From positions 150,329-214,328 of the forward strand of contig JAHFEF010000001.1 in assembly GCA_023248545.1 (NCBI GenBank): a DNA stretch of 64,000 bases, read 5' to 3'. Each line of letters begins with the position of its first letter. Within the stretch, counting starts at the first letter, position 1. The position numbers were made by a program, and so were the translations under genes. Below are positions 1-26,332 of the stretch, in pieces. The notes under the pieces were generated by a model that saw only the letters and a list, made by a program, of their open reading frames with translations, was not told the DNA's origin and did not search any database. The stretch comes from Myxococcales bacterium. GTDB taxonomy: Bacteria > Myxococcota > UBA727 > JABDBI01.

Positions 1-19
1 TGTTGCAAATTATTGACAC

Positions 20-655
20 TTGTTTATAAGTGCTGATAAAATGCAACATATGGGAGCTAAATCTGAAACAAAAGCCCTAGCATTATTTCGTCAAAACAAG
101 GGTGTCCTCAGAGCCCGAGAGGCTGTCAGGTTGGGGATTTATAGTATGACGCTGAACCGTCTACAAAATAAGGGCCTAATTGAATTGATTTCCCGGGGTA
201 TTTATCGCTTAACTGGGTTAGAACCCCTATCTCACCAAGATTTGGTGATTATCAGCGAACGCGTGCCAGGGGGGGTGATTTGTTTGCTCTCTGCGCTGGC
301 GTTTCATAAGATGACCACGCATAACCCCCGAGAAATATTTGTCGCTGTTCCTCGTGGACATCTGAAAACTCGTATCGATTGGCCCCCTGTCCATGTGTTC
401 CTGTTTGGGGACAAGGCTTATTCGGAAGGAATCGAAACTCATATTCTTGATGGGGTTTCGGTCAAAGTTTACAGCCGTGAGAAAACACTGGTTGATTGTT
501 TTAAGTTTAGAAACAGGCTTGGCTTAGACGTGTTTCTTGAGGCTCTGAAGGCCTATCGAGGAAAATCGCCTATTCAAGTTGATAAGATTCTATACTTCGC
601 TGAAATCTGCAGAGTGAAGCGGATTATCATGCCTTACATCGAGTCAATTCTATGA
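20..655 (+). CDS. abiEi: AbiEi-family antitoxin / transcriptional regulator (type IV TA)
   Basis: 211 aa with an N-terminal wHTH-like region. Its stop overlaps the start of the next gene (ATGA at 652-655), and that gene is AbiEii-like. The family call is from recognisable sequence similarity. Confidence 0.65.
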   Translation: MFISADKMQHMGAKSETKALALFRQNKGVLRAREAVRLGIYSMTLNRLQNKGLIELISRGIYRLTGLEPLSHQDLVIISERVPGGVICLLSALAFHKMTTHNPREIFVAVPRGHLKTRIDWPPVHVFLFGDKAYSEGIETHILDGVSVKVYSREKTLVDCFKFRNRLGLDVFLEALKAYRGKSPIQVDKILYFAEICRVKRIIMPYIESIL

Positions 656-1569
656 AAAAACCCATCATCAATATTGAACAGTCGATTCATCAGAAGCTTT
701 TGAATCAGGCGAAATCAACCAACCAAACGTTTGAACACGTCCTGAAGCGCTATGCGATGGAGCGATTTCTGTATCGGCTGTCTGTTTCGCCTCACGTAAA
801 CGACTTTATCCTAAAAGGCGGACTGCTGCTTGCTTGTTACGACGTACCGAGTTCCAGGCCAACGCTTGATATCGATTTACAGAGCTTCTATCCGGACCAC
901 CATCTAGACCGTGTTAAAATGGTCATTCATGAACTTTGTCAACTTCCGGTCGAACCTGATGGACTCCGATTTGATGCAACAAGTTTGGTTTGCGAGACCT
1001 TGAACCATCTTGATGGTTATGATGGCGTTGGTGTGCACCTCTTTTGCTACCTGGGTCGGGCTGATATCGCTGTCAAAATCGATATTGGTTTTAGTGGAGG
1101 TCTTCGTCCGGCTCCTGTTTTGGTTGATTATCCCACACTACTATCAATGCCAAGACCAAGGCTTCGGGCTTACAGACAAGAAAGTGTCATTGCCGAGAAG
1201 TTTGAGGCGATGCTAAAACATGACTTGGCAACCTCCAGGATGAAAGATTTTTATGATATTTGGATGCTGTCGTCGATATTTGAATACGAGAGCGTTGAAT
1301 TAATGATGGCAATCATGCAAACATTCAAGCATTGTAAGCGTGAAATCGGAGTTAAACCATCTGTATTTCAAGAGGCATTTGCAAGCGATCCCAGGTTGAC
1401 CAAAAAATGGCAGGTATTTCTCCAAAAGAATAACCTCACAGATGCACCAAGAGAATTCTCGGCCGTGATGGAACATATCGGGAAGTTTTTGCAGCCAATT
1501 GTAGAAAATTTAGCTAAAAAGGCTTCAATAAAGGCTCACTGGATACCGCCTGGGCCCTGGAAGGTTTAA
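652..1569 (+). CDS. abiEii: nucleotidyltransferase AbiEii/AbiGii-family toxin (DUF1814)
   Basis: 305 aa, translationally coupled to the upstream AbiEi-like gene. Size and composition fit the AbiEii nucleotidyltransferase family. Confidence 0.7.
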   Translation: MKKPIINIEQSIHQKLLNQAKSTNQTFEHVLKRYAMERFLYRLSVSPHVNDFILKGGLLLACYDVPSSRPTLDIDLQSFYPDHHLDRVKMVIHELCQLPVEPDGLRFDATSLVCETLNHLDGYDGVGVHLFCYLGRADIAVKIDIGFSGGLRPAPVLVDYPTLLSMPRPRLRAYRQESVIAEKFEAMLKHDLATSRMKDFYDIWMLSSIFEYESVELMMAIMQTFKHCKREIGVKPSVFQEAFASDPRLTKKWQVFLQKNNLTDAPREFSAVMEHIGKFLQPIVENLAKKASIKAHWIPPGPWKV

Positions 1570-1577
1570 AGGTTTAG

Positions 1578-2453
1578 ATGGACAAGCAAATAAAGGGAAC
1601 TATTTTGGTGGCGTTGTCGGGTGTGTGCTACGGGACCATCGGATATTTCGGCACAGATTTGTTCCGGGCAGGGCTCTCGGTGACGGATTTATTGTTCTGG
1701 CGTTTTGCGGGGTCTGTCTTGCTGATGCTGCCGTTATTGCCTGTATTTTTGAAGGCCAAGTTCAACGCTTATCAGTGGCAGACGTTGGGGTTATTTTTCG
1801 TGCTGGGGGCGATTTGTTACGGCGGTGGGACGGTCTTGTATTTTCAGTCGGGCTTTATGATCGGCACGGGCTTGGCCATGGTGTTGTTTTTCACATACCC
1901 ACTGTTGGTCGTTGCCTGGTCGGCTGCGGTGCAGAAACGTTGGCCGAATTGGGTTACTTGGCTGTCACTCTTATTGATTGTGGTGGGTTGTATCATGATT
2001 GGCTCGGGGGATGCGGCTCGGGTGAATTGGGAGGGGATTATCCTGGCGGTGATTTCGGGAATGGCTTACGGGGTCTATATTTTGGCCAGTAAAAATCGAG
2101 CTGGCGTTGTGACGCCGTTATTGGCTACTTTTACGGTTTGTTTGGGCAATGTGGCGGGGTTTGTGATTTATATTTTGGCGATGGGCCAGGTTTTTTATGT
2201 GCCGCAGAGTGCGCCAATGATTTGGAATATGTTTTTGTTTAGCCTGGTCGGGACGGTGTTGCCCGTATTGTTGCTTCTTCAGGGCGTCAAGCTGATTTCG
2301 GCCACGAAGACAGCGATTATCTCTGTTTTGGAGCCGGTGACGGTGTTGTTGGTGGGTGTTATGCTGCTTGGCGAGCCGGTGAGTTTAGTGCAGGCTGTGG
2401 GCGCTGTGGTGATTTTAAGCAGCGCGTTGGTGATCCAGGTGGCGCGGGACTAG
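1578..2453 (+). CDS. EamA/DMT-family transporter
   Basis: 291 aa, about 10 hydrophobic helices, Gly-rich duplicated halves typical of drug/metabolite transporters. Confidence 0.7.
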   Translation: MDKQIKGTILVALSGVCYGTIGYFGTDLFRAGLSVTDLLFWRFAGSVLLMLPLLPVFLKAKFNAYQWQTLGLFFVLGAICYGGGTVLYFQSGFMIGTGLAMVLFFTYPLLVVAWSAAVQKRWPNWVTWLSLLLIVVGCIMIGSGDAARVNWEGIILAVISGMAYGVYILASKNRAGVVTPLLATFTVCLGNVAGFVIYILAMGQVFYVPQSAPMIWNMFLFSLVGTVLPVLLLLQGVKLISATKTAIISVLEPVTVLLVGVMLLGEPVSLVQAVGAVVILSSALVIQVARD

Positions 2454-2526
2454 ACAATCGGACAAACTTTTTAAGCTTGCATTGATTATTGAGATCCTAT
2501 AATATGAAAATAGGAGGTTTGTACTT

Positions 2527-2772
2527 ATGGCTAAAGTCTTAACAGTTGCCTCAAATGGGCAGATTTGTATCGGTCGAGAATGGGCTGGCAGGCAAATTTC
2601 GATCGAAGAATTGGGTCCAGCAGAGCTCAAGATTGTGAGTGGGGCTTTTGTGCCTGATCCAGTCTTAGAAGAGTTCGAGCAGTGGCAAGCTAAGAATCCT
2701 GCGAAAAAAACAGATAGAATCGCTCTCATGAAGCGCCTAAGGAACAAAGCTTCTCATGATGAAAAGTATTAA
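2527..2772 (+). CDS. AbrB/MazE/SpoVT-type DNA-binding protein, putative antitoxin
   Basis: 81 aa. The N-terminus (MAKVLTVASNGQICIGREWAGRQISIEE) matches the swapped-hairpin AbrB fold. The gene overlaps the start of the downstream small gene. Confidence 0.6.
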   Translation: MAKVLTVASNGQICIGREWAGRQISIEELGPAELKIVSGAFVPDPVLEEFEQWQAKNPAKKTDRIALMKRLRNKASHDEKY

Positions 2773-3130
2773 AAAGCTGTTTTCCACTCACAATGAGCTG
2801 GTTCAATGCGACCTTGAATTTCCGCGGTTTCAAAGAGAATTGGAAGAACTTGGGCTTGATCAGCTGGATGATTTTGATCGTTGTGTAGACAAAATAGAAC
2901 AAATGACCTGGGCACAGGTTTTGGCAACTGCTTCAAAACATGGAAAACGTGGACTGAATTGGGAACCGATCACTAGGCAAAAAACGAAAACAGGATCAGC
3001 GATTGCCACCATCAGAGTCACCAGAAAATTTCGTGCACGGGTGACACGTGATGGTGTTTTTATGCGCTTCATCTCGTTGCATCTTGATCACGACAGCGCT
3101 TATGAAGAGTCTGGCGGAGAACGTATCTAG
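2756..3130 (+). CDS. putative RelE/HigB-like toxin with an N-terminal extension
   Basis: 124 aa. The C-terminus (IRVTRKFRARVTRDGVFMRFISLHLDHDSAY) resembles the C-terminal RelE/HigB core. It overlaps the upstream AbrB-type gene. Confidence 0.4.
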   Translation: MMKSIKKLFSTHNELVQCDLEFPRFQRELEELGLDQLDDFDRCVDKIEQMTWAQVLATASKHGKRGLNWEPITRQKTKTGSAIATIRVTRKFRARVTRDGVFMRFISLHLDHDSAYEESGGERI

Positions 3131-3239
3131 GAAATCACGATGGGCTAGCCAGGCTCAGAATGGCTTCAGAGATCTTGCTCGATGGCCTTGAATCCGCATG
3201 GATTGGTGTGAACGATTAGCCAGCCAGGCAGGAAAATGA

Positions 3240-4484
3240 GTGGAATCGCTCAAATTTCGGCGAATTTTGTTGATTAACACTCAGATTTCGGCGAATATTG
3301 AAGTTATGGTGCGATTAGAGCGATTGATTAGTCCAAACATTGAGCGAGCCTTGGTCCGTGGCAAGAGCATTCTGCTGCTAGGCCCCAGACAGACTGGGAA
3401 AACTACTTTACTTCAAAAGATACCCTGTGATTTGTCTCTTTCTTTGGTAAAAATCGGTTTGAAGCAGCGCTATGAGAAAGATCCAAGTTTATTGGAAGGC
3501 GAAATCCAAGAATTAGCCAAGCAAAAAAAGAAAAAGCTTCTTATCCTATTAGACGAAGTGCAAAAAGTCCCTGAGCTGTTAGATGTGGCACAGGATTTTT
3601 ATGACTCGGGCCTGGCCCAATTTATTCTGACAGGCTCTTCTGCGAGAAAATTGCGAAAGCAAAAAGCGAATCTTCTCCCAGGTCGCGTTGTTGCTATGCA
3701 CCTCGATCCTTTGACACTGAACGAAACCCCAATTTCTAAAAGAAATCTCGAAAATTTACTGATCTATGGGAGCCTGCCTGGAATTTTACTTCAAGATGAT
3801 CATTTGGATCAAGAAACAGATCTTCGATCCTATGTCGAGACCTACATTGAAGATGAAATTAGAGCCGAATCCGTGGTTCGCAATCTATCGAAATTTTCAA
3901 GATTTTTAGAACTTGCCTGTTCGGAATCCGGTAAAATCATCAATTTTCAAAAGCTCTCCCAGGAGATTGGCGTGGCGCATACAACCATTGCGTCTTACTA
4001 CCAAATTTTAGAAGACTGCCTCCTGCTCGAAAGAATAGAACCTATCAGTGAGTCAAAGACCCGAGCAAGATTGACCCGAACGCAGAGGTTTCTCATTTTT
4101 GATCTCGGAGTCAGGCGCGTTGCAGCAGGAGAACCGGCAACATTATCTCAAAGTGCTCTGGGTGACCTTCTTGAGCATTGGGTAGGCCTAGAACTTATTC
4201 GCTGCGCAAGGCTTGCAGCTGAACTGGTTAAAATTCGATTTTGGAGAGACCCCAGTGGCCCGGAAGTGGACTGGGTCATTGAGAGAAACCAGCATTTTAC
4301 CCCGATTGAAGTCAAATATTCCAAAGCCCCAGGCAAAAGCGACGCTAGACACCTGGAAACATTTTTAAATGAATATCCCAACAGCTCGAACGGTTATATC
4401 GTCTGTCGAACCGAACGACCTTTTCAGATTTCAGACCGTGTGACAGCGATTCCATGGTACGAGTTGCCTGAGTTATTGGCCTAA
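3240..4484 (+). CDS. AAA+ ATPase with C-terminal DUF4143-like PD-(D/E)xK domain
   Basis: Walker A motif GPRQTGKTT and a Walker B-like LLDEVQ. The C-terminus carries D...E-x-K residues (PEVDWVIER, PIEVKYSK). The true start may be the Met at 3306. Confidence 0.7.
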   Translation: MESLKFRRILLINTQISANIEVMVRLERLISPNIERALVRGKSILLLGPRQTGKTTLLQKIPCDLSLSLVKIGLKQRYEKDPSLLEGEIQELAKQKKKKLLILLDEVQKVPELLDVAQDFYDSGLAQFILTGSSARKLRKQKANLLPGRVVAMHLDPLTLNETPISKRNLENLLIYGSLPGILLQDDHLDQETDLRSYVETYIEDEIRAESVVRNLSKFSRFLELACSESGKIINFQKLSQEIGVAHTTIASYYQILEDCLLLERIEPISESKTRARLTRTQRFLIFDLGVRRVAAGEPATLSQSALGDLLEHWVGLELIRCARLAAELVKIRFWRDPSGPEVDWVIERNQHFTPIEVKYSKAPGKSDARHLETFLNEYPNSSNGYIVCRTERPFQISDRVTAIPWYELPELLA

Positions 4485-4544
4485 TTAAAAAAAAACCGTG
4501 CGTCTCATTGCTTTTTTTTCTGCTGCTGAACTATCCTGATTTAT

Positions 4545-6331
4545 ATGAAAAAAACTTTACTTGGTTGCGGTCTAGGTTTTGTGATGCTTCTATCGTTTTC
4601 TTGTGGTGGAGGGAATTCTACTTCGCAGGCCTCGGTTGATTCCAATCTTGCGGCGAGGGTCACCAATTCTCAAACAATTGATCAGAACAGTGTTCTAGTG
4701 TCTCAAGTCGGCGGTGTTTTTAAGACGGGCACTGCCTCCTACCTGCAAGGTTTTGACGCGTTTTTGGATCGCGTCAATGGGCACCCAACCATGAAATTCT
4801 CAGAACTTTTGCGAGGCAAGGTGCAGAAATTTCAACCCATCTTCCGCTGCCGCTGACGAGCAGTAAGCCGGTTTCAAGCACACCCAGCACAGCGCCTCCA
4901 GTTGCTTTCGATTGGAGAAGCAACTCTAAGGCCAGTGCGTGCAATATTAACTCGGTATTTAACCAAGGGCAATGTGGGTCTTGCTGGGCGAACTCGTCGG
5001 CCTACACAATAGGTAATGCCTATTGTGTCCAGAAAGGTGTCAACCCAGGCATGTTGTCAGCGCAGTATTTCATTGATTCAGCGATAGGGTATTCTAATTC
5101 TACGGAGGGCATTGCTGTTCCAGGTAGCTTTGGATGTGCGGGTGGATCACCTATTATAGCCATGAGTATTGCCAAAGAAACGCTCGGAGTTCCTACTAAT
5201 TCTTGTCGTGGCTCACTGTTTAACAACAGCGCTGCCGGTTCATTGGCTTGCATGGGAAACGATACGTGTTCGCGTTGCTCTTGTGTTTCCTCAACGGTGG
5301 CTGGTCAGGCCCAACCCCAAGCCCAGGCTGTTGACTATGCAACAGCCGCGACGACTGTATTAGCAGTAGGCGGAGTACCATCAGCATACTTTTTTGGGCT
5401 TCCGGTTGTTTTTGGTTTTGCGCCGCAATCGAATCTTGCGTTGACCGTGCAGACTCAAATTGGAAGTACCACGATCCTCGATGTGGCAAACCTGCCACAA
5501 TCAAGTTCACCAACGCTGTTGTCGGCACCCTATAGTGGGTTCTTGGGCATTGGAATGGCTAATCCAATGGATAATTTTTTTACACTCACAGGCTCTTATT
5601 CGTGTTTTCCTGGAACCGCTGACGTAACGCCTACACCGTGTACCTTCTCCACAACCTGTGACAATGGAACAGCCATATCATCGAATAGCTCAATAAAAGT
5701 AACGTCTGTTCATCAAATCGATAAGACGACACTCGGTGCGATTTCGACATTACAGGCTTCAGCAACTCCTCCCGTCGACACAACGGATCCATCCTATGTT
5801 GGCGCGATTAGTCAGATTAAAACCTTGGTTCAAACATATGGACCGGTCACAGTCGGATTTAGGGAGCCGTTTTCGTTTATGAACTATCGAGGCGGGGTGT
5901 ATAGCTACACAGGCTGGGTACCCTATGCGGTGGATAGTGCACCGGGCAAACCAGTAACTTGTACGGCGTCCACAGCTTCTACCGCGTGCGCCATTAGTGC
6001 GAATTCGGGTCCAAACGTTTATAAAATCTATACCGAATTAAGTAATATCGGAGGTTCACCGCTGCCCACCAATTGTGTCGGTTCGACATCTTGGCAACCC
6101 GTAACGGGTACAGCCGCTGGCATATGCGCGATGCAAGATGTCTTCGTCGGAGGTCACGCGGTGTCGATCGTGGGTTGGGGAACGGATTCGACGAGCAATC
6201 AAAACTATTGGATCGTCGCCAACAATTGGGGTTCAAACTGGGGGGAAGGTGGCTTTGTCAAAATGGCCATGAACGGCATGACGGGAGCTCAAATCTTCTG
6301 GTATGACTTCGTCGCTGCCGCTCAGTTTTAA
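4545..6331 (+). pseudogene. papain-family (C1) cysteine protease, apparently frameshifted
   Basis: Frame 0 (4545-4856) encodes a lipoprotein-like signal peptide and an N-terminal region. Frame +2 is open from 4757 and encodes FDWR...NQGQCGSCWA (catalytic Cys near 4976) with no in-frame ATG, GTG or TTG before 5051. The His (GGHAVSIVGWG) and Asn/Trp (YWIVANNWGSNWGEGGF) motifs follow in the 5051-6331 ORF. Confidence 0.6.
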
Positions 6332-6345
6332 AGAGGGTCGGTCAT

Positions 6346-7338
6346 TTAGTGTGAAGGCGGCTGGCAAGAAGGGCCAAAAGGGCCATTTTGACAGGTGTTG
6401 CCACTCGGGCAAACATTCCGACAGGCGCCGCAGTTATTTGCATCAGTGGCAAGGTTGGCGCAATAAGCTGCCGGTAACCCGTCGACAACGTCTGCACCGC
6501 TGTTGTAGCAGGTAGTTTGATTGGCAGAGCATGTAGTGGCCGGTGTAGCTGTGTTGGCGTGCCACAGGCTAACATTTGTACTGCTGTATATAACTAGATC
6601 GCCATTGTCTTGCAGGACGAGTTTGTCGCCAGGGTTGCCATCTGTGTTTGTTCTAAATCTGGGTATATTATTGACATCATAGACCACAAAATTGCCATCC
6701 GTCTGCATGTATGCGCTTCCGCCCGCGGCGATATTCGTGGTATTGGAGCTCCAAATAGCAGTGCTTGATTGATACAGTGCGAGATTGCCATCAGTTTGCA
6801 TGACTAGCCTATAGACGCCATTTTGGGACGTAAGCGTTGTACCGGAGGCGAGAGATGGCGCCGTCTTGCCTGGCGCGGCCGTGCTTTGGAGGGTTGTAGG
6901 GCTGGCGATTTCCTGGCATGCGCTGTTTGAGCACTGTTGATTATTCGAACACACCTTCCCACAGCTGCCGCAGTTACTGGCGTCAGTGGCAAGGGCAGCG
7001 CAATAGGGGGAGAGAAAAATCGTATTTCCTTCTTGGCCGGCGGGGCAAGTAACTTGACCGGTGGGGCATTGGCAAGAGCCATTCATGCAAGTGGCGCCGC
7101 TCGAGCAAACATTTCCACAGCTGCCGCAGTTATTGGCGTCAGTGGTAAGGTTGGTGCAATAGGAGGCGATTAGGCTGGTGCAAGTAACTTGACCGCTGGG
7201 GCATTGTCCGGCTGTGCCAGTTACCGCAAGGTTCGCATTGCCTGCTCCGTAATCGCTAGACCCACAACCAAATGAAGTGAAGAGGATGCCCGAAAAAACC
7301 AAAACAGTCGCAAATCTACAACAGTGTTCAAAGCTCAT
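6346..7338 (-). CDS. secreted bulb-type (B) lectin domain protein with Stig1-like Cys-rich repeats
   Basis: Signal peptide. Three QxDxNxVxY-like lectin subdomains (MQTDGNLALY, MQTDGNFVVY, LQDNGDLVIY). Four CxxLxTDxNNCGxCGxxC repeats. Confidence 0.75.
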   Translation of the reverse strand: MSFEHCCRFATVLVFSGILFTSFGCGSSDYGAGNANLAVTGTAGQCPSGQVTCTSLIASYCTNLTTDANNCGSCGNVCSSGATCMNGSCQCPTGQVTCPAGQEGNTIFLSPYCAALATDASNCGSCGKVCSNNQQCSNSACQEIASPTTLQSTAAPGKTAPSLASGTTLTSQNGVYRLVMQTDGNLALYQSSTAIWSSNTTNIAAGGSAYMQTDGNFVVYDVNNIPRFRTNTDGNPGDKLVLQDNGDLVIYSSTNVSLWHANTATPATTCSANQTTCYNSGADVVDGLPAAYCANLATDANNCGACRNVCPSGNTCQNGPFGPSCQPPSH

Positions 7339-7472
7339 TTTATGCCCCTTTAGCCGCTATGTAACTATCGGTATGAAAAAGTGCCATTTAGGTAATGGAT
7401 ATATTGCCGCTCGGGGGCTCGGCAGGCCTGGTGAAAACGGCTTCAAAGCTCGCCCCTGGTGATCAGGGGGAT

Positions 7473-7772
7473 TTATTTTGGATGTTTTGTAATGGCTAGG
7501 ATCGTAATATCATTGCTACCTGGTCCATAGCACCAAAAGATTCGATGAGCGCCTGGCGTATTGTTCTGAGCGTATGCTTCAAATACTTTGCCATCTTTTT
7601 TGAATGGATTTTCCAGCGAATGAAACGGGTGTGTTTCTAAACCAGGGTGTCTAGGATTTTGCTTCAGAAACTTGAGAGCTTTTTGAACCTGCTTGAAAAG
7701 CCCAGGCCTGGAGCTTTTTTCAAGCGAGCGATAAACCTCGAGGGCAGCGTCAGTCCATTGAAGATCAAACAT
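7473..7772 (-). CDS. RelE/ParE-superfamily toxin (YhaV-like)
   Basis: 99 aa with C-terminal HRIFWCYGPGSNDITILAITKHP, a RelE/YhaV-like core. Its start overlaps the stop of the upstream antitoxin gene. Confidence 0.55.
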   Translation of the reverse strand: MFDLQWTDAALEVYRSLEKSSRPGLFKQVQKALKFLKQNPRHPGLETHPFHSLENPFKKDGKVFEAYAQNNTPGAHRIFWCYGPGSNDITILAITKHPK

Positions 7773-8008
7773 TAGAGGGAGACCGCATTCTTAGTGAGCT
7801 TTCCGGATTTTGCTTGCTCTATGCCTCTTAAAACCTGCGCTTTGGCTTCAGGATTTCGATGGAGCCATAGTTCTCTTTCTGGGATGAGGGAGGCCTTTTT
7901 GAACACGAACTCACCAGGTTCCAGCTCCTCAACTAGAAAAAATTGCGAGGCAAAGGCGGTGCCCAAGTTAACTCTTCCTTTAGAATCTGCTTGTAGAGTG
8001 TGTTCCAT
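7772..8008 (-). CDS. AbrB/SpoVT-type (PrlF-like) antitoxin
   Basis: 78 aa with a DSKGRVNLG AbrB-like hairpin. ATGA overlap with the toxin gene. Confidence 0.55.
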   Translation of the reverse strand: MEHTLQADSKGRVNLGTAFASQFFLVEELEPGEFVFKKASLIPERELWLHRNPEAKAQVLRGIEQAKSGKLTKNAVSL

Positions 8009-8119
8009 GCTCCCATTTTAACATTTGTGGGACTTTATGACAAGTGGGAGTTTTTGGCTTAATTCCATACTCTAGGCCTACTTGAATAACCCCCCGATTC
8101 TGCTAGGATTGGGCCCTTC

Positions 8120-8647
8120 ATGCACCCACTTTGGCTTATTTTAGACACGGCCTGCCCAAGGGCGCTCATCGCACTGGCTCAGAATGGAGAAGTCTTGGCC
8201 GAAGTTTATCTCGATGAATATAAGCGACACGGCGAAAAATTGGCCAGTGCGATTGATAGGTGTCTAGCTCAAGCTGGCTGTCAAATTGGCAATATAACAG
8301 CTGTGGCAGTGGGTACGGGGCCCGGGTCGTTTATCGGCGTGCGCATCGCGATGGCCCATGCGAAAGGCTTGTGTACCGCGTTGCAAATCCCTCTCATAGG
8401 TTTTAATACGTTGGCAGGTATTGATTCTCAGAAAGCGAATTGGGTGGCGATTGATGCCCGTCGTGGCGAATATTATGGTTTGGAAATAGGCAGGAAACAG
8501 GCAGTTATTTTGAAATCACTCCCAGAAAATACATATTTAGAATCAAAAGGTCCTGTGGCTCGACAAATCTTGGCTTTGTTGCCGTCAGAAATGAACGATG
8601 AGACACTCACGCTGGTGCCGAACTATATTAGGGATAGCCAATGCTAG
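8120..8647 (+). CDS. tsaB: tRNA threonylcarbamoyladenosine biosynthesis protein TsaB
   Basis: 175 aa, YeaZ-like: ILDTA..ALIALAQNGEVLAE, GPGSFIGVRIAMAHAKG. Confidence 0.8.
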   Translation: MHPLWLILDTACPRALIALAQNGEVLAEVYLDEYKRHGEKLASAIDRCLAQAGCQIGNITAVAVGTGPGSFIGVRIAMAHAKGLCTALQIPLIGFNTLAGIDSQKANWVAIDARRGEYYGLEIGRKQAVILKSLPENTYLESKGPVARQILALLPSEMNDETLTLVPNYIRDSQC

Positions 8648-11394
8648 AACTTCCCTGGCTGCGTTTATTAGAGGCTGTGAGGCCAGAACAAGTTTCGCTG
8701 AGGGTGATGTTTCACGAGTTGCCTCGGCGTGAAGGCAAGTGCCTAGCAGAACTTTATATTGAGCACATTGAAGGCGCTGTGAGCGAGCCTGGTAAGTTGC
8801 TCGACCCCAAATTAAATCTTTCTCCAAGGCAGCTGGCTTGTGTTCAGATTTTTGTAGCGTCCACGGCATTTTCAGCCAAACGTGATGTCTATGCTTTGAG
8901 TCCCGCTCAGGCCATGAGTGTTTTTTTACTGGCCAACGATGTGGGGGTCGAAGTCAGAAATCGAGGCATTGTTACGTTGAGCCCCACGCCAGCTTATTTG
9001 AAAGCCATTTTGGAGGCCGATAAGATTTTATTTCAGGCAGTCGATGCAAATCAAAAGCCAATTAATGAGCCGGTTGTCCTCGGCGTCGATCGGGCATTTT
9101 TGCTAGATTCAAAACTGAAGGTTTATAATCTAGAACCAGTGTTTTTGCCAAGCGAAGCCGATGCGTTGTTATCGATTCCCGCGTTGGCTCTTGAGTCTTT
9201 GGCACACGACGAGTCCCGTGTAGTCTGTTCGCAGTTGGCGAAGCTGGGCGTTGATTTGTCCTGTTTAAAGTCGCTGGGAAGGCAAGCCAAATCGCAGATA
9301 GCTTTGAGGGCGTTACTGGGTAAATCTCTTGAGTTGCGATTGCACTTGGTGAATATTTTGTCTGATGGGGATGTCGAAGACGAAGTTGAAATTAGGTCTA
9401 AAGGAGCCTTAGAACCGATTTTTTGGCTGCCCAATCAAATTGCAATACAGCGGCCGACTGAGCTCGAAGAACAAGCGCGTCAGGCCTTGTTTAAGTTGGG
9501 TGCTTTGCCCAGCCAAAAACACAAGGGTTTCTCAGCCAAGGGCCAAGAGGCGCTGAATCTGTTGTCGCAGATTTCAAATCCAAAAAATTTGCCTGAATGG
9601 TTGTGGGTAGACCCTGATTGTTTGCCAAAAATCATCGCGCTGCCACAAAAGCCAGCTCTGTGGGTCGAAAAGACCGCTGGGGCTGCTTTGAAAGTTCAAG
9701 TTCAGTTGGGCGATGTTTCTTTTTCGCTTGAAAAGCTATTTGAAATTGCTCATCAGGATGGCCAAGCCCTGTTGGTCGAAGACGATACGGTTTTGACTTT
9801 TTCAAAAGAAGCCGTGCGCTCCCTTAAAATTTTGACAGAGTCTTTAGAAATAGGTGAACTCTCTGAATCTAAAGAATACTCATTTTTTGAAATTGCACTG
9901 CTGTTACGCATGCTTGAGTCCAACATAGAAGTTCAAGCAGAAGAAGCTTTATATGAACGTTTGTCGAAGTTTGTGCCCGAATTATTGCCAGAAGATCATT
10001 TATTGCCCGGAACACTCCAGACAGCTTTGAGGCCATATCAGCACGACGCGGTTGCCTGGATGTCGCAGCTGCACCGAGCAGGCCTGGGGCGTCTATTGGC
10101 CGATGAAATGGGTCTGGGTAAGACGCTGATGGTCTTGTGTTTGTTGGTAAAGATTAAAGAACATGAAGGCGCAAAACCCAGTCTGGTAGTTGCCCCAACG
10201 AGTGTGCTCGATGTTTGGATGGCGGAGTCCAAACAGCATTTTGTGGGCTTAAACACGGTCAAATGGCACGGCGCTGATCGGGCGGAGCAGATTGAAGAGG
10301 CGAAGAAGGCTGATTTGGTGATCACCAGCTATGCGCTCCTACGCCGTGATATTCAGACATTGTCGGAGATTAATTTTCGTTATTTGGTGGTGGACGAAGC
10401 GCAGATTATTAAGAATTCGAAAACAGAAAGCTGGAAAGCGGCACGATTGATTAGATCTGAACAGCGTTTGGCATTGTCTGGAACGCCCATCGAGAACAGG
10501 ATCTCAGACTTACATAGTATTTTAGAATTAGTATCGCCAGGTATTTTGGGTGACGAGAGAGCTTTTGTGAAGCGCTATGGTGCGGGTGAAAAAAACGCTG
10601 AGTTGCGTGAACGCGTACGGCCCATGATTTTACGGCGTCGAAAAGAAGAAGTTGAAAGCGATTTGCCGCCCAAAATCGAAAATATTTTGCGCTGTGACAT
10701 GGCGGCCGAACAACGAACGCTCTATTTGGAGATTTTGCGGGCTGCTCAGAAAGAACTTAACCATGCGGCTTATAATAGTATCCCTCTATTGGCCGCATTG
10801 ACGCGTTTGAGGCAAGTTTGCTGTGATCCGAGTTTGATACCGGATCAGCGGGGTAATTTGGGTTCGGCCAAACTGGATTTATTTATTGAGATGATCCAAG
10901 AGTGCTTGTCCAATGGCCGTCGCGTGATCGTGTACAGCCAGTTTGTCAAAATGCAGGGTATTTTGCTGGATGCGCTGGCCAGGCATGGCATCAAAGATAC
11001 ACTTTGGCTGCACGGTGCGACGCAAAATCGAGGAGAGGTCGTCGCGGAGTTTCAAAAACCAGATGGCCCCAGAGTGATTGTGGTGAGTTTGAAAGCCGGT
11101 GGGACGGGTATTACGCTGACAGCGGCCGATACGATTATTTATTACGACCCCTGGTGGAATCCAGCCGTGATGGATCAAGCGGCTGATCGGGCTCATCGGA
11201 TTGGTCAAACCAAGACGGTGCACTTGATCAAATTAGTTTGCCACAATAGCATCGAAGAGCAAATATTGGCTTTGTGTGAGAAAAAACGCGCGGTTGCTGA
11301 CGACGTTTTGTTGGCCGATCGGGCAGGGCAGCGATCACTGACGCTCGAGGACATTAAACAGCTTTTGCAAGTGGAGATAGACCGGGATTTATGA
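8641..11394 (+). CDS. SNF2-family helicase
   Basis: 917 aa. RPYQHDAVAWM, GLGKTL, DEAQIIKN and C-terminal helicase motifs (DPWWNPAVMDQAADRAHRIGQ). The roughly 450-aa N-terminal domain is unassigned. Confidence 0.85.
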   Translation: MLELPWLRLLEAVRPEQVSLRVMFHELPRREGKCLAELYIEHIEGAVSEPGKLLDPKLNLSPRQLACVQIFVASTAFSAKRDVYALSPAQAMSVFLLANDVGVEVRNRGIVTLSPTPAYLKAILEADKILFQAVDANQKPINEPVVLGVDRAFLLDSKLKVYNLEPVFLPSEADALLSIPALALESLAHDESRVVCSQLAKLGVDLSCLKSLGRQAKSQIALRALLGKSLELRLHLVNILSDGDVEDEVEIRSKGALEPIFWLPNQIAIQRPTELEEQARQALFKLGALPSQKHKGFSAKGQEALNLLSQISNPKNLPEWLWVDPDCLPKIIALPQKPALWVEKTAGAALKVQVQLGDVSFSLEKLFEIAHQDGQALLVEDDTVLTFSKEAVRSLKILTESLEIGELSESKEYSFFEIALLLRMLESNIEVQAEEALYERLSKFVPELLPEDHLLPGTLQTALRPYQHDAVAWMSQLHRAGLGRLLADEMGLGKTLMVLCLLVKIKEHEGAKPSLVVAPTSVLDVWMAESKQHFVGLNTVKWHGADRAEQIEEAKKADLVITSYALLRRDIQTLSEINFRYLVVDEAQIIKNSKTESWKAARLIRSEQRLALSGTPIENRISDLHSILELVSPGILGDERAFVKRYGAGEKNAELRERVRPMILRRRKEEVESDLPPKIENILRCDMAAEQRTLYLEILRAAQKELNHAAYNSIPLLAALTRLRQVCCDPSLIPDQRGNLGSAKLDLFIEMIQECLSNGRRVIVYSQFVKMQGILLDALARHGIKDTLWLHGATQNRGEVVAEFQKPDGPRVIVVSLKAGGTGITLTAADTIIYYDPWWNPAVMDQAADRAHRIGQTKTVHLIKLVCHNSIEEQILALCEKKRAVADDVLLADRAGQRSLTLEDIKQLLQVEIDRDL

Positions 11395-25379: not shown

Positions 25380-26267
25380 GTGAATAAAATATTTCAGCGG
25401 GTGCTTGTATTGACCACTTTGTTTTGCGCGCAGGGGCGCGCTGTCGAGGAGTCTCCTGATGCCATTCGAGAACCCGAAGCAGCATCAGTAGCTGCTGGCC
25501 ACTTTTCCAGCATCGGTGGATCGTTCGGGTTGGAAGAATATACCCGCCATTTTGCTCCCAATGAGCCGAATTATTTTCTGGCTGGATGGCTGTCGCCGCA
25601 GGTCAAATTTCAGATTAGTTTTCGGTACATGATTCTCAATCCCACGGGTTCACTGGTCCAGAAACATGCGTGGATGAAGGGATTTAATTTTGGTTTCTCT
25701 CAAACCTCTTGGATGAATATTACGACGCTGGATGATTCTTTTTTTGCAGACAGCAGCTATCGCCCGGAATTATTTTACTATTTTGAAAACTTTCTGCCAA
25801 CGGCTTCACAACCCGTTCAGCAATTGGGGCTTCAAGGTGGCATCGGCCATGAATCGAATGGTTTTAAACAATCTGACCACCGTTCGCTCAATATTTTTTT
25901 CCTGAGGCCTCTATTCACCTTAGGTAGCCAATCGAAGGGTCTTTTCCTGACGGTTGCCCCTAAGTTTTATTATTATTTTGGGCCGATTGCTTTGAATCCG
26001 GATATCGCAAACTATCGAGGCTATTGCGACTTACGAGTGACCTTGGGCCAACGCGATGGCTTGCAACTGGCGGTATTAGGCCGGGTTGGCAGTCATTTTG
26101 ATAAGGGAAGCCTCCAGCTGGATTTGACCTATGCTCTCACCAAGATCTTCGACGGAAACTTCGATGTTTCGCTGGATGTACAATATTTTGTTGGTTATGG
26201 CGACACCATCCAAACGTACAGAGATTTTAGCAGCATGTTACGCTTTGGTGTTGCGCTGGTGCGTTAA
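25380..26267 (+). CDS. pldA: outer-membrane phospholipase A1 (OMPLA-like)
   Basis: Catalytic motif GHESNG...RSLN. Length fits OMPLA if the GTG at 25380 starts a signal peptide (VNKIFQRVLVLTTLFCA). The exact start is uncertain. Confidence 0.6.
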   Translation: MNKIFQRVLVLTTLFCAQGRAVEESPDAIREPEAASVAAGHFSSIGGSFGLEEYTRHFAPNEPNYFLAGWLSPQVKFQISFRYMILNPTGSLVQKHAWMKGFNFGFSQTSWMNITTLDDSFFADSSYRPELFYYFENFLPTASQPVQQLGLQGGIGHESNGFKQSDHRSLNIFFLRPLFTLGSQSKGLFLTVAPKFYYYFGPIALNPDIANYRGYCDLRVTLGQRDGLQLAVLGRVGSHFDKGSLQLDLTYALTKIFDGNFDVSLDVQYFVGYGDTIQTYRDFSSMLRFGVALVR

Positions 26268-26290
26268 AATTTGGTATCGAAGCTGGGTAA

Positions 26291-26332
26291 GCTATAGCCG
26301 TATTGCTTCTTGCGTAATATCCGCGCCTTTGA
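26291..26332. repeat. 42-bp direct repeat, copy A (upstream of the Cys-rich gene pair)
   Basis: ctatRgccgtattgcttcttgcgtaatatccRcgcctttgaa. Matches copy B at 40 of 42 positions. Confidence 0.7.

Follow-up and report, generated by a model that had tools for sequence, protein, structure and literature searches.

The 64,000-nucleotide stretch of Myxococcales contig JAHFEF010000001.1 analyzed here (the window) carries, between positions 4545 and 6331 of its plus strand, a gene for a papain-family (C1A) cysteine protease whose reading frame is interrupted. We consider this locus to be an authentic, evolutionarily recent frameshift pseudogene, with a probability of roughly three in four. One base would have been lost from the sequence AAATTT at 4827-4832, with translation from the ATG at 4545 halting at the TGA at 4854 to yield a 103-amino-acid (aa) fragment made up of the signal peptide and most of the propeptide, while the catalytic domain would be left in the -1 frame without a usable start before the catalytic Cys. 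The presumed outcome, judged from the sequence, is loss of function. The frameshift itself is a case of ordinary pseudogenization and matters mainly for annotation: the public "peptidase" calls (one of 426 aa that lacks the catalytic Cys, and an orphan of 90 or 103 aa) are the halves of one broken gene, for which a pseudogene label is due.

Reading frames and the missing base

The two parts of the gene were defined from a list of open reading frames (ORFs) and a six-frame translation. The upstream ORF (4545-4856) has the start MKKTLLGCGLGFVMLLSFSCGGG and terminates at the TGA at 4854-4856. The frame that carries the catalytic box QGQCGSCWA (4964-4990) is open from 4757, directly after a TGA at 4754-4756, to the TAA at 6329-6331, and comprises 524 codons; the two open frames share 100 nucleotides (nt; 4757-4856). 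A scan of the catalytic frame for start codons found no ATG, GTG or TTG upstream of the ATG at 5051, and the near-start codons before that position are limited to ATT (4796, 4829 and 4946), CTG (4847 and 4853) and ATA (5009). The catalytic residue is the second Cys of the QGQCGSCWA box, corresponding to Cys147 of the repaired 595-aa protein, and the frame is not translatable from any canonical start that keeps it. The original prediction, made from the sequence without database searches, had described this layout of a signal-bearing ORF and a catalytic box in a separate, overlapping frame without an early start, and the ORF list, the translations and the start-codon scan reproduce it.

The features of the locus are the following (pLDDT, predicted local distance difference test; AF2, AlphaFold2; SNP, single-nucleotide polymorphism).

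4545..4829, plus strand: 5' section, read in the original frame, which encodes a lipoprotein-type signal peptide and most of the predicted helical propeptide; it corresponds to residues 1-95 once the protein is repaired.
4827..4832, plus strand: frameshift site AAATTT, where the homologues have one base more (DNA and protein alignments).
4830..4856, plus strand: out-of-frame tail FQPIFRCR and premature stop TGA (4854-4856), which end the 103-aa product (translation).
4832..6331, plus strand: remainder of the gene in the -1 frame, with the putative end of the propeptide, a linker and the C1A catalytic domain (Pfam, PDB alignments, AF2 and Foldseek).
5051..6331, plus strand: 426-aa ORF, publicly annotated as a gene (P0001/P0063), which starts downstream of the catalytic Cys codon and lacks a signal peptide.
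5152..5218, plus strand: SNP tract of 67 bp that holds all nine differences between the window and contig L003 (alignment, with the codon phase worked out by hand).
5219..5641, plus strand: insertion 1 (residues 226-366, ~140 aa), at the end of the L lobe; pLDDT below 50 in both AF2 models.
5918..6148, plus strand: insertion 2 (residues ~459-535, ~75 aa), just before the strand of the catalytic His; AF2 block-mean pLDDT ~69-81.

Public gene calls split the broken gene into a 103-aa product (90 aa in the NCBI call) and a 426-aa "Peptidase_C1". Since the latter begins past the catalytic Cys and lacks a signal peptide, it would be inactive if made.

The position of the lesion was established by homology. 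The protein search recovered two close relatives, P0002 (591 aa) and P0003 (574 aa), both of which are single continuous ORFs from Logan assemblies of SRA runs. Their N-termini align residue for residue with the upstream frame of the window until ...SELLRGKVQK; past K95 this frame has no homology to P0002 or P0003 in the protein alignment, and from ...STH onward the homologues follow the downstream frame, so that the frame switch lies between K95 and S97. The DNA alignment with the homologous loci L001 and L002 opens a single 1-nt gap in the window sequence, within CAG-AAATTT-CAA. Adding one A or one T at 4827-4832 brings back the sequence ...QK(I/F)STH... and gives a 595-aa protein, with full-length identities of 63% to P0002 and 54% to P0003. 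By these alignments, the window lacks exactly one nucleotide in the A3T3 run. The resulting -1 shift (one base missing) is equivalent to the +2 shift that had originally been proposed, to which the homology adds the exact site.

A run of seven A residues (4548-4554) directly follows the start codon (ATGAAAAAAAC). No other homopolymer in the gene's 5' region is as long. Given the many stops in the -1 frame before 4754, the run has no bearing on the observed shift.

Recurrence of the short allele and age of the lesion

The short allele recurs in four assemblies, which represent at least three accessions and at least two assembly pipelines. A counterpart of the 426-aa ORF call, 99% identical to it, lies on the ENA contig L003 (k141_1679250; ERZ27280021). 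This contig matches positions 1-8901 of the window (8,901 bp) with nine mismatches and no gap, indel site included. The exact 103-aa upstream ORF is present on the ENA contig L085 (k141_2150412; ERZ27276474) and on the Logan contig L086 (SRR14366783_2397054), both of which match the window across the site with 100% identity, L085 over 1.8 kb and L086 over 1.25 kb. The "k141_" contig names are in a style that we take to be MEGAHIT short-read output. A scan of the 64-kb window found no other stop-to-stop ORF with a long start-less N-terminus, and the genes of the window that were compared with NCBIfam models are covered essentially end to end in the case of mpl (1-446 of 448) and holA (5-316 of 316), and over positions 8-627 of 648 in the case of the amine oxidase.

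Because the same short allele occurs elsewhere and no further frameshift-like ORF is found within 64 kb, a sequencing or assembly error, under which the true genome would have seven nucleotides at 4827-4832 and one continuous 595-aa ORF, is unlikely. Such an error would be in keeping with the continuous ORFs of the homologues, with a gene that is flawless apart from the indel, with the location of the indel within the short homopolymers A3 and T3, and with the near-identity of the four assemblies, whose source material may be common; nevertheless, the allele is shared by the NCBI contig, two "k141_" contigs from different ENA accessions and a Logan contig from an SRA run, and runs of three bases are not error-prone on short-read platforms. 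Orthologues with a single continuous ORF, named in the original prediction as a sign of sequencing error, were indeed found, but the inference to an error is weakened by the identical allele in the other contigs.

Regarding the age of the frameshift pseudogene, the nine differences between the window and L003 are all transitions; eight are synonymous and fall at third codon positions of the protease frame, and the ninth exchanges Ile for Val (P ~0.001 for at least eight of nine at third positions; binomial, our own calculation). The pattern suggests a short segment of recombination or strain variation, in which the differences would have built up under purifying selection on the protease frame; no second copy of the gene that could have acted as its donor is present in the window. 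Moreover, the downstream frame keeps all family-invariant columns (Gln141, Cys147, His538, Asn560 and 15 conserved Cys) and shows no rate acceleration, with 54.5% identity between the window protein and P0003 compared with 56.1% between P0002 and P0003. The retention of the invariant residues, the lack of acceleration and the third-position bias together point to a recent inactivation, with a small remaining probability of some expression.

Several points weigh against an authentic pseudogene. Apart from the indel the gene is perfectly intact, as would also be expected if it were functional through recoding, or if the short allele were one variant of a polymorphism and intact copies were in circulation. 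The four assemblies are 100% identical outside the one 67-bp tract and the evidence consists of assembled contigs; given this near-identity, the assemblies may in part go back to one sample or to shared sequencing runs. As regards the protein encoded by the intact form, the alignments behind the propeptide and the two insertions are shallow, at three sequences, the structure of insertion 1 could not be modeled (pLDDT below 50 in both AF2 runs), and the lipobox of the window protein, LSFSC, departs from the canonical L-[AS]-[GA]-C. An exact-pattern DNA search of JGI metagenomes, with 5-9 nt allowed at the indel site, returned nothing, and no intact allele of this species was recovered from them.

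Alternative explanations: programmed frameshifting and gene fission

Programmed or tolerated -1 frameshifting, near 4827-4832 or at the heptamer G TTT TTG (4760-4766), would give some full-length zymogen, with the 103-aa product as a regulated alternative. The 100-nt overlap of the open frames, the fully intact downstream frame, with variation biased to third positions, and this one relaxed heptamer are in line with it. However, no strict X XXY YYZ heptamer occurs in the 0 frame within 4757-4856, and the sole relaxed match, G TTT TTG, precedes the homology junction by 66 nt; a shift there, at 4761, would replace the conserved 22-residue segment GHPT.K.SELLRGK.QK. At the junction itself, re-pairing from AAA to GAA or from UUU to AUU would, judging from the sequence, create a first-base mismatch in each case, and A3T3 homopolymers are too short for transcriptional slippage. 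The RNA downstream is not more stable than shuffled sequences, either at 4834-4910 (-13.8 kcal/mol, z=+0.57) or over 4760-4960 (z=-0.54). The shift is also not conserved, P0002 and P0003 running continuously through the position, whereas programmed sites normally are conserved. All three tests for a -1 site (heptamer, structure and conservation) therefore failed, programmed frameshifting has no support, and we regard this explanation as very improbable. No Rfam family was found near the gene, and a scan for promoters and terminators performed no better than on shuffled sequences. Among the three explanations that the original prediction had put side by side, the pseudogene is thus favored, the sequencing indel is unlikely given the allele in three further contigs, and programming is left without support.

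Least probable is a functional gene fission, in which the 103-aa lipoprotein would act as a stand-alone propeptide-like inhibitor and/or a cytoplasmic catalytic fragment would be made from a non-canonical start such as the ATT at 4829: the truncated product does keep the predicted helical pro-region, stand-alone propeptide-like inhibitors are established in eukaryotes (MEROPS family I29), and a Shine-Dalgarno-like AAGGTG (4818-4823) lies 5 nt upstream of that ATT, but AAGGTG simply encodes a conserved K-V, ATT starts are very rare, the propeptide is severed ahead of its C-terminal portion, which threads the cleft of known zymogens, the window encodes no further C1 peptidase that could serve as a target, and a signal-less cytoplasmic enzyme with ~15 conserved, presumably disulfide-forming Cys is unlikely to fold. 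Considered jointly, a short allele that serves as a recoded or split gene, either through a non-canonical -1 shift at AAA-UUU that would give a full-length, lipid-anchored procathepsin-B-like enzyme at a low, regulated level or through retention of the 103-aa lipoprotein as an inhibitor, is again very improbable.

Protease identity, fold and predicted maturation

The 524-codon frame matches the Pfam family Peptidase_C1 (PF00112) in two stretches, with E=5.7e-30 and 105.5 bits (cutoff 20.7); P0002 and P0003 score 110 and 118 bits, respectively. Sequence matches to PDB entries cover the Cys box and the His/Asn box, the best being ananain (6mis/6y6l, E 5.8e-16). The Cys box NQGQCGSCWA, aligned to that of ananain, provides Gln141 (4964-4966) and Cys147 (4982-4984) in the arrangement Q-x5-C-W. 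Meanwhile, GGHAVSIVGWG provides His538 (6155-6157) in a G-H-A motif and VANNWGSNWGEGG provides Asn560 (6221-6223) in an N-x-W-G motif; both align to PDB chains and are invariant in a 62-sequence alignment; the stop codon is the TAA at 6329-6331. The catalytic counterparts in papain are Gln19, Cys25, His159 and Asn175.

Two structural models were generated using AF2, the first for the catalytic region (window 4892-6331) from the 62-row alignment and the second for full-length P0002. In the first, the catalytic core adopts the papain fold with pLDDT mostly between 75 and 97 and a predicted template-modeling score of 0.71. The search of this model against the PDB with Foldseek gave 261 matches at E<=0.001, headed by cathepsin B (1gmy_A, E=2e-11, template-modeling (TM) score 0.71, normalized by target length); the 50 matches listed are all papain-family, with TM scores of 0.56-0.80 in the same normalization. 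The protein thus belongs to C1A by every sequence and fold criterion tested, which bears out the papain-family assignment of the original prediction, and the resemblance is not due to chance.

The P0002 model additionally contains N-terminal helices at residues 31-46, 50-57 and 83-90, with a block-mean pLDDT of ~70-85, and when the N-terminus is included, procathepsin B zymogens lead the Foldseek results (1mir_A at 9e-14, then 4i04 and 1pbh). The model, built on an alignment three sequences deep, suggests that this helical region is a propeptide; no match to the Pfam families I29 or Propeptide_C1 was found in the window protein, P0002 or P0003. The signal ends at Cys20 (codon 4602-4604), which is followed by GGG, and all three proteins have a hydrophobic signal that ends in Cys and continues into a Gly/Ser-rich linker, an arrangement typical of lipoproteins. 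By inspection against the lipobox pattern [LVI][ASTVI][GAS]C, P0003 fits (LVSC), P0002 fits in part (SAGC) and the window protein deviates (SFSC).

On the basis of these models, the intact family is best explained as a C1A zymogen with a procathepsin-B-like fold and a predicted lipid anchor. In the intact form (~575-595 aa), the predicted lipoprotein signal at the N-terminus would lead to export and to lipidation of Cys20, and the helical propeptide (~95 aa) would block the active-site cleft until its removal in zymogen activation. The mature enzyme would use Gln141, Cys147, His538 and Asn560. Around the cleft, the fold would be decorated by the clade-specific insertions of ~140 aa and ~75 aa, which are rich in conserved, probably disulfide-forming Cys; like the occluding loop of cathepsin B, they would probably limit or guide the entry of substrates. 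Lipidation, the zymogen mechanism and the role of the insertions are what we infer for the family as a whole.

Insertions between the catalytic Cys and His

The spacing between Cys147 and His538 is 391 aa, and not the ~430 aa of the original estimate. Compared with papain, in which the spacing is 134 (papain numbering), this leaves an excess of ~257 aa, which the AF2 models divide into ~140 aa, an extra helix of ~20 aa that precedes the strand "YGPVTVGF", and ~75 aa. The earlier claim of additional sequence between Cys and His was therefore right in kind, but its size (~300 aa) was too large, and two or three insertions are present in place of one. The description of the inserted sequence as GxxxG-rich does not hold, with five GxxxG motifs in the 595 aa and none in insertion 1. 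The insertions contain ~22% Ser+Thr, but this fraction is no higher than in the whole protein. With respect to the suggested structure prediction, insertion 2 could be modeled, whereas insertion 1 could not.

Insertion 1 is located where cathepsin B bears its occluding-loop region. It opens with a Cys-rich sequence (C236, C242, C245 and C247), continues into a hydrophobic Ala/Ser/Thr-rich segment, and is conserved in all three proteins of the family. The segment is probably beta-rich: the P0002 model predicts four beta strands, and a beta-sandwich fold is possible. No Pfam family matches insertion 1, and an exhaustive profile search of 1.84 billion representatives returned its own family and three weak matches only. 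The latter were P0071 (cadherin-repeat), P0073 (Ig-like-repeat) and P0072 (scattered sub-threshold Pfam matches); they were judged probably compositional because they extend over multiple stretches and P0071 is made of S/T/A/D-rich repeats. Insertion 2 contains four conserved Cys (473, 482, 511 and 528) and two helices (model residues 359-365 and 374-387).

Extra segments inserted in the papain fold are described as limiting the access of substrates to the cleft (PMC10380794), and by this analogy a role of insertion 1 in gating or substrate binding is a reasonable proposal. A ~140-aa orphan domain at the occluding-loop position could define a new mode of active-site gating in C1A peptidases.

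Comparison with known papain-family peptidases

Cathepsin B and procathepsin B (1mir, 1gmy and 4i04) are the best structural matches of both models, with E values from 2e-11 to 9e-14 and target-length-normalized TM scores of 0.64-0.73. The window protein has the same Gln/Cys/His/Asn catalytic apparatus, its sequence "ANNWG..WGE.GF" resembles the "ANSWN.DWGDNGF" motif of cathepsin B, and its extra Cys-rich sequence stands at the end of the L lobe, at the site of the occluding loop. In cathepsin B this loop comprises ~20 residues with His110-His111, and the propeptide is of its own type (Propeptide_C1). In contrast, the window protein has no His-His in the equivalent Cys-rich stretch (FNNSAAGSLACMGNDTCSRCSC), and it carries ~140 extra aa compared with ~20, together with the second insertion of ~75 aa. 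Moreover, identity in the structural alignments is ~15%, and the protein bears a predicted bacterial lipoprotein signal in place of the eukaryotic lysosomal targeting route. Since the His-His occluding loop is absent and Propeptide_C1 is not matched, the protein is not a cathepsin B proper, and the resemblance is structural only.

The plant papain-like peptidases (ananain, bromelain, ficin and papain) provide the best PDB sequence matches at the Cys box and the His/Asn box; unlike the window protein, they are eukaryotic mature enzymes of 212-222 aa with a Cys-His spacing of ~134, no insertions and I29-type propeptides. A long spacing is shared with C1B (bleomycin hydrolase/aminopeptidase C/PepC; PF03051), which has the papain fold and a Cys-His spacing of ~290-300 aa, so that long spacing has a precedent in family C1. 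However, the match to PF03051 is confined to profile positions 360-400 of 438, in the His region (13.7 bits for the window protein and 22.1 for P0003, with a cutoff of 22). Because these 40 residues are the whole of the match, the protein is not assigned to C1B, whose members are cytoplasmic oligomers without signal peptide or propeptide and carry unrelated inserted sequences.

Among bacteria, a survey of the family found diverse C1A peptidases in Deltaproteobacteria/Myxococcota (PMC10380794). The bacterial members described there, such as the short xylellain-type enzymes and multidomain proteins such as Cwp84, belong to the papain family as the window protein does, but they are single-domain or have appended domains, whereas here the extra sequence lies inside the catalytic domain and the protein is predicted to be lipid-anchored.

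Family distribution and genomic neighborhood

In a profile search of 5.8 billion protein clusters, only P0002, P0003 and the window protein, together with its ENA counterpart, ranked ahead of ordinary cathepsins at E ~1e-15. Neither the 185,579 species-representative genomes nor the JGI metagenomes yielded a relative in scans based on the family alignment, which used two peptide patterns; as the scans hinge on these two patterns, very divergent relatives could escape them. The family is a modestly novel C1A variant, with a predicted lipid anchor and large orphan internal insertions, and is extremely rare, with three known members. Should the intact relatives prove active, they would show how far the papain fold can accommodate large internal insertions beside the active-site cleft; predatory or degradative Myxococcota-like bacteria may also have in them a new module for gating or binding substrates.

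The Mpl ligase encoded in the window is closest (53-60% identity) to those of uncultured Myxococcales, Deltaproteobacteria and Myxococcota metagenome-assembled genomes (MAGs), and the GC content of the host is ~49%. By the Mpl similarity, the host is probably an uncultured, deep-branching bacterium of Myxococcota-like affiliation. No close representative of the host was found in the GTDB release 232 set searched, and the loci around Mpl homologues in related Myxococcota MAGs contained no C1 peptidase. L001 and L002 have a common upstream gene that is not present at the window locus, and the neighbors in the window differ from those of both homologues.

Upstream of the protease pseudogene lies an AbiEi_4/AbiEii pair of abortive-infection/toxin-antitoxin type (20-1569, plus strand), and downstream of it two small overlapping ORFs of 99 and 78 aa (7473-8008, minus strand) look like another toxin-antitoxin pair. 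These two pairs place the pseudogene in an accessory-gene neighborhood, among whose accessory-type members is also a gene for a DUF4143 ATPase. A TsaD-family fragment gene (8120-8647) precedes the gene for a 917-aa Snf2-family helicase (8641-11394, plus strand), which has partial matches to pilus-regulating Snf2 and to the defense helicases ZorD and DrmD, all far below the equivalog cutoffs. Farther along the window, the largest stretch without a selected long ORF (~0.8 kb in a greedy map) is 25485-26297, in which no Rfam family was detected; it is flanked by a 741-aa ORF on the minus strand and a 960-aa ORF on the plus strand, the latter without an NCBIfam match.

The convergent neighbor of the pseudogene (6346-7338, minus strand) ends 15 nt from the protease stop codon. 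Its product of 330 aa is rich in Cys and has a signal that resembles those of lipoproteins (…FTSFGCGSS); Logan and ENA both contain the exact protein. It combines three Stig1-like Cys-rich repeats (PF04885, E=2.7e-13), of a family that takes its name from a protein of the plant stigma, with a bulb-type mannose-binding lectin segment (PF01453, below cutoff), a combination that is unusual for a bacterium.

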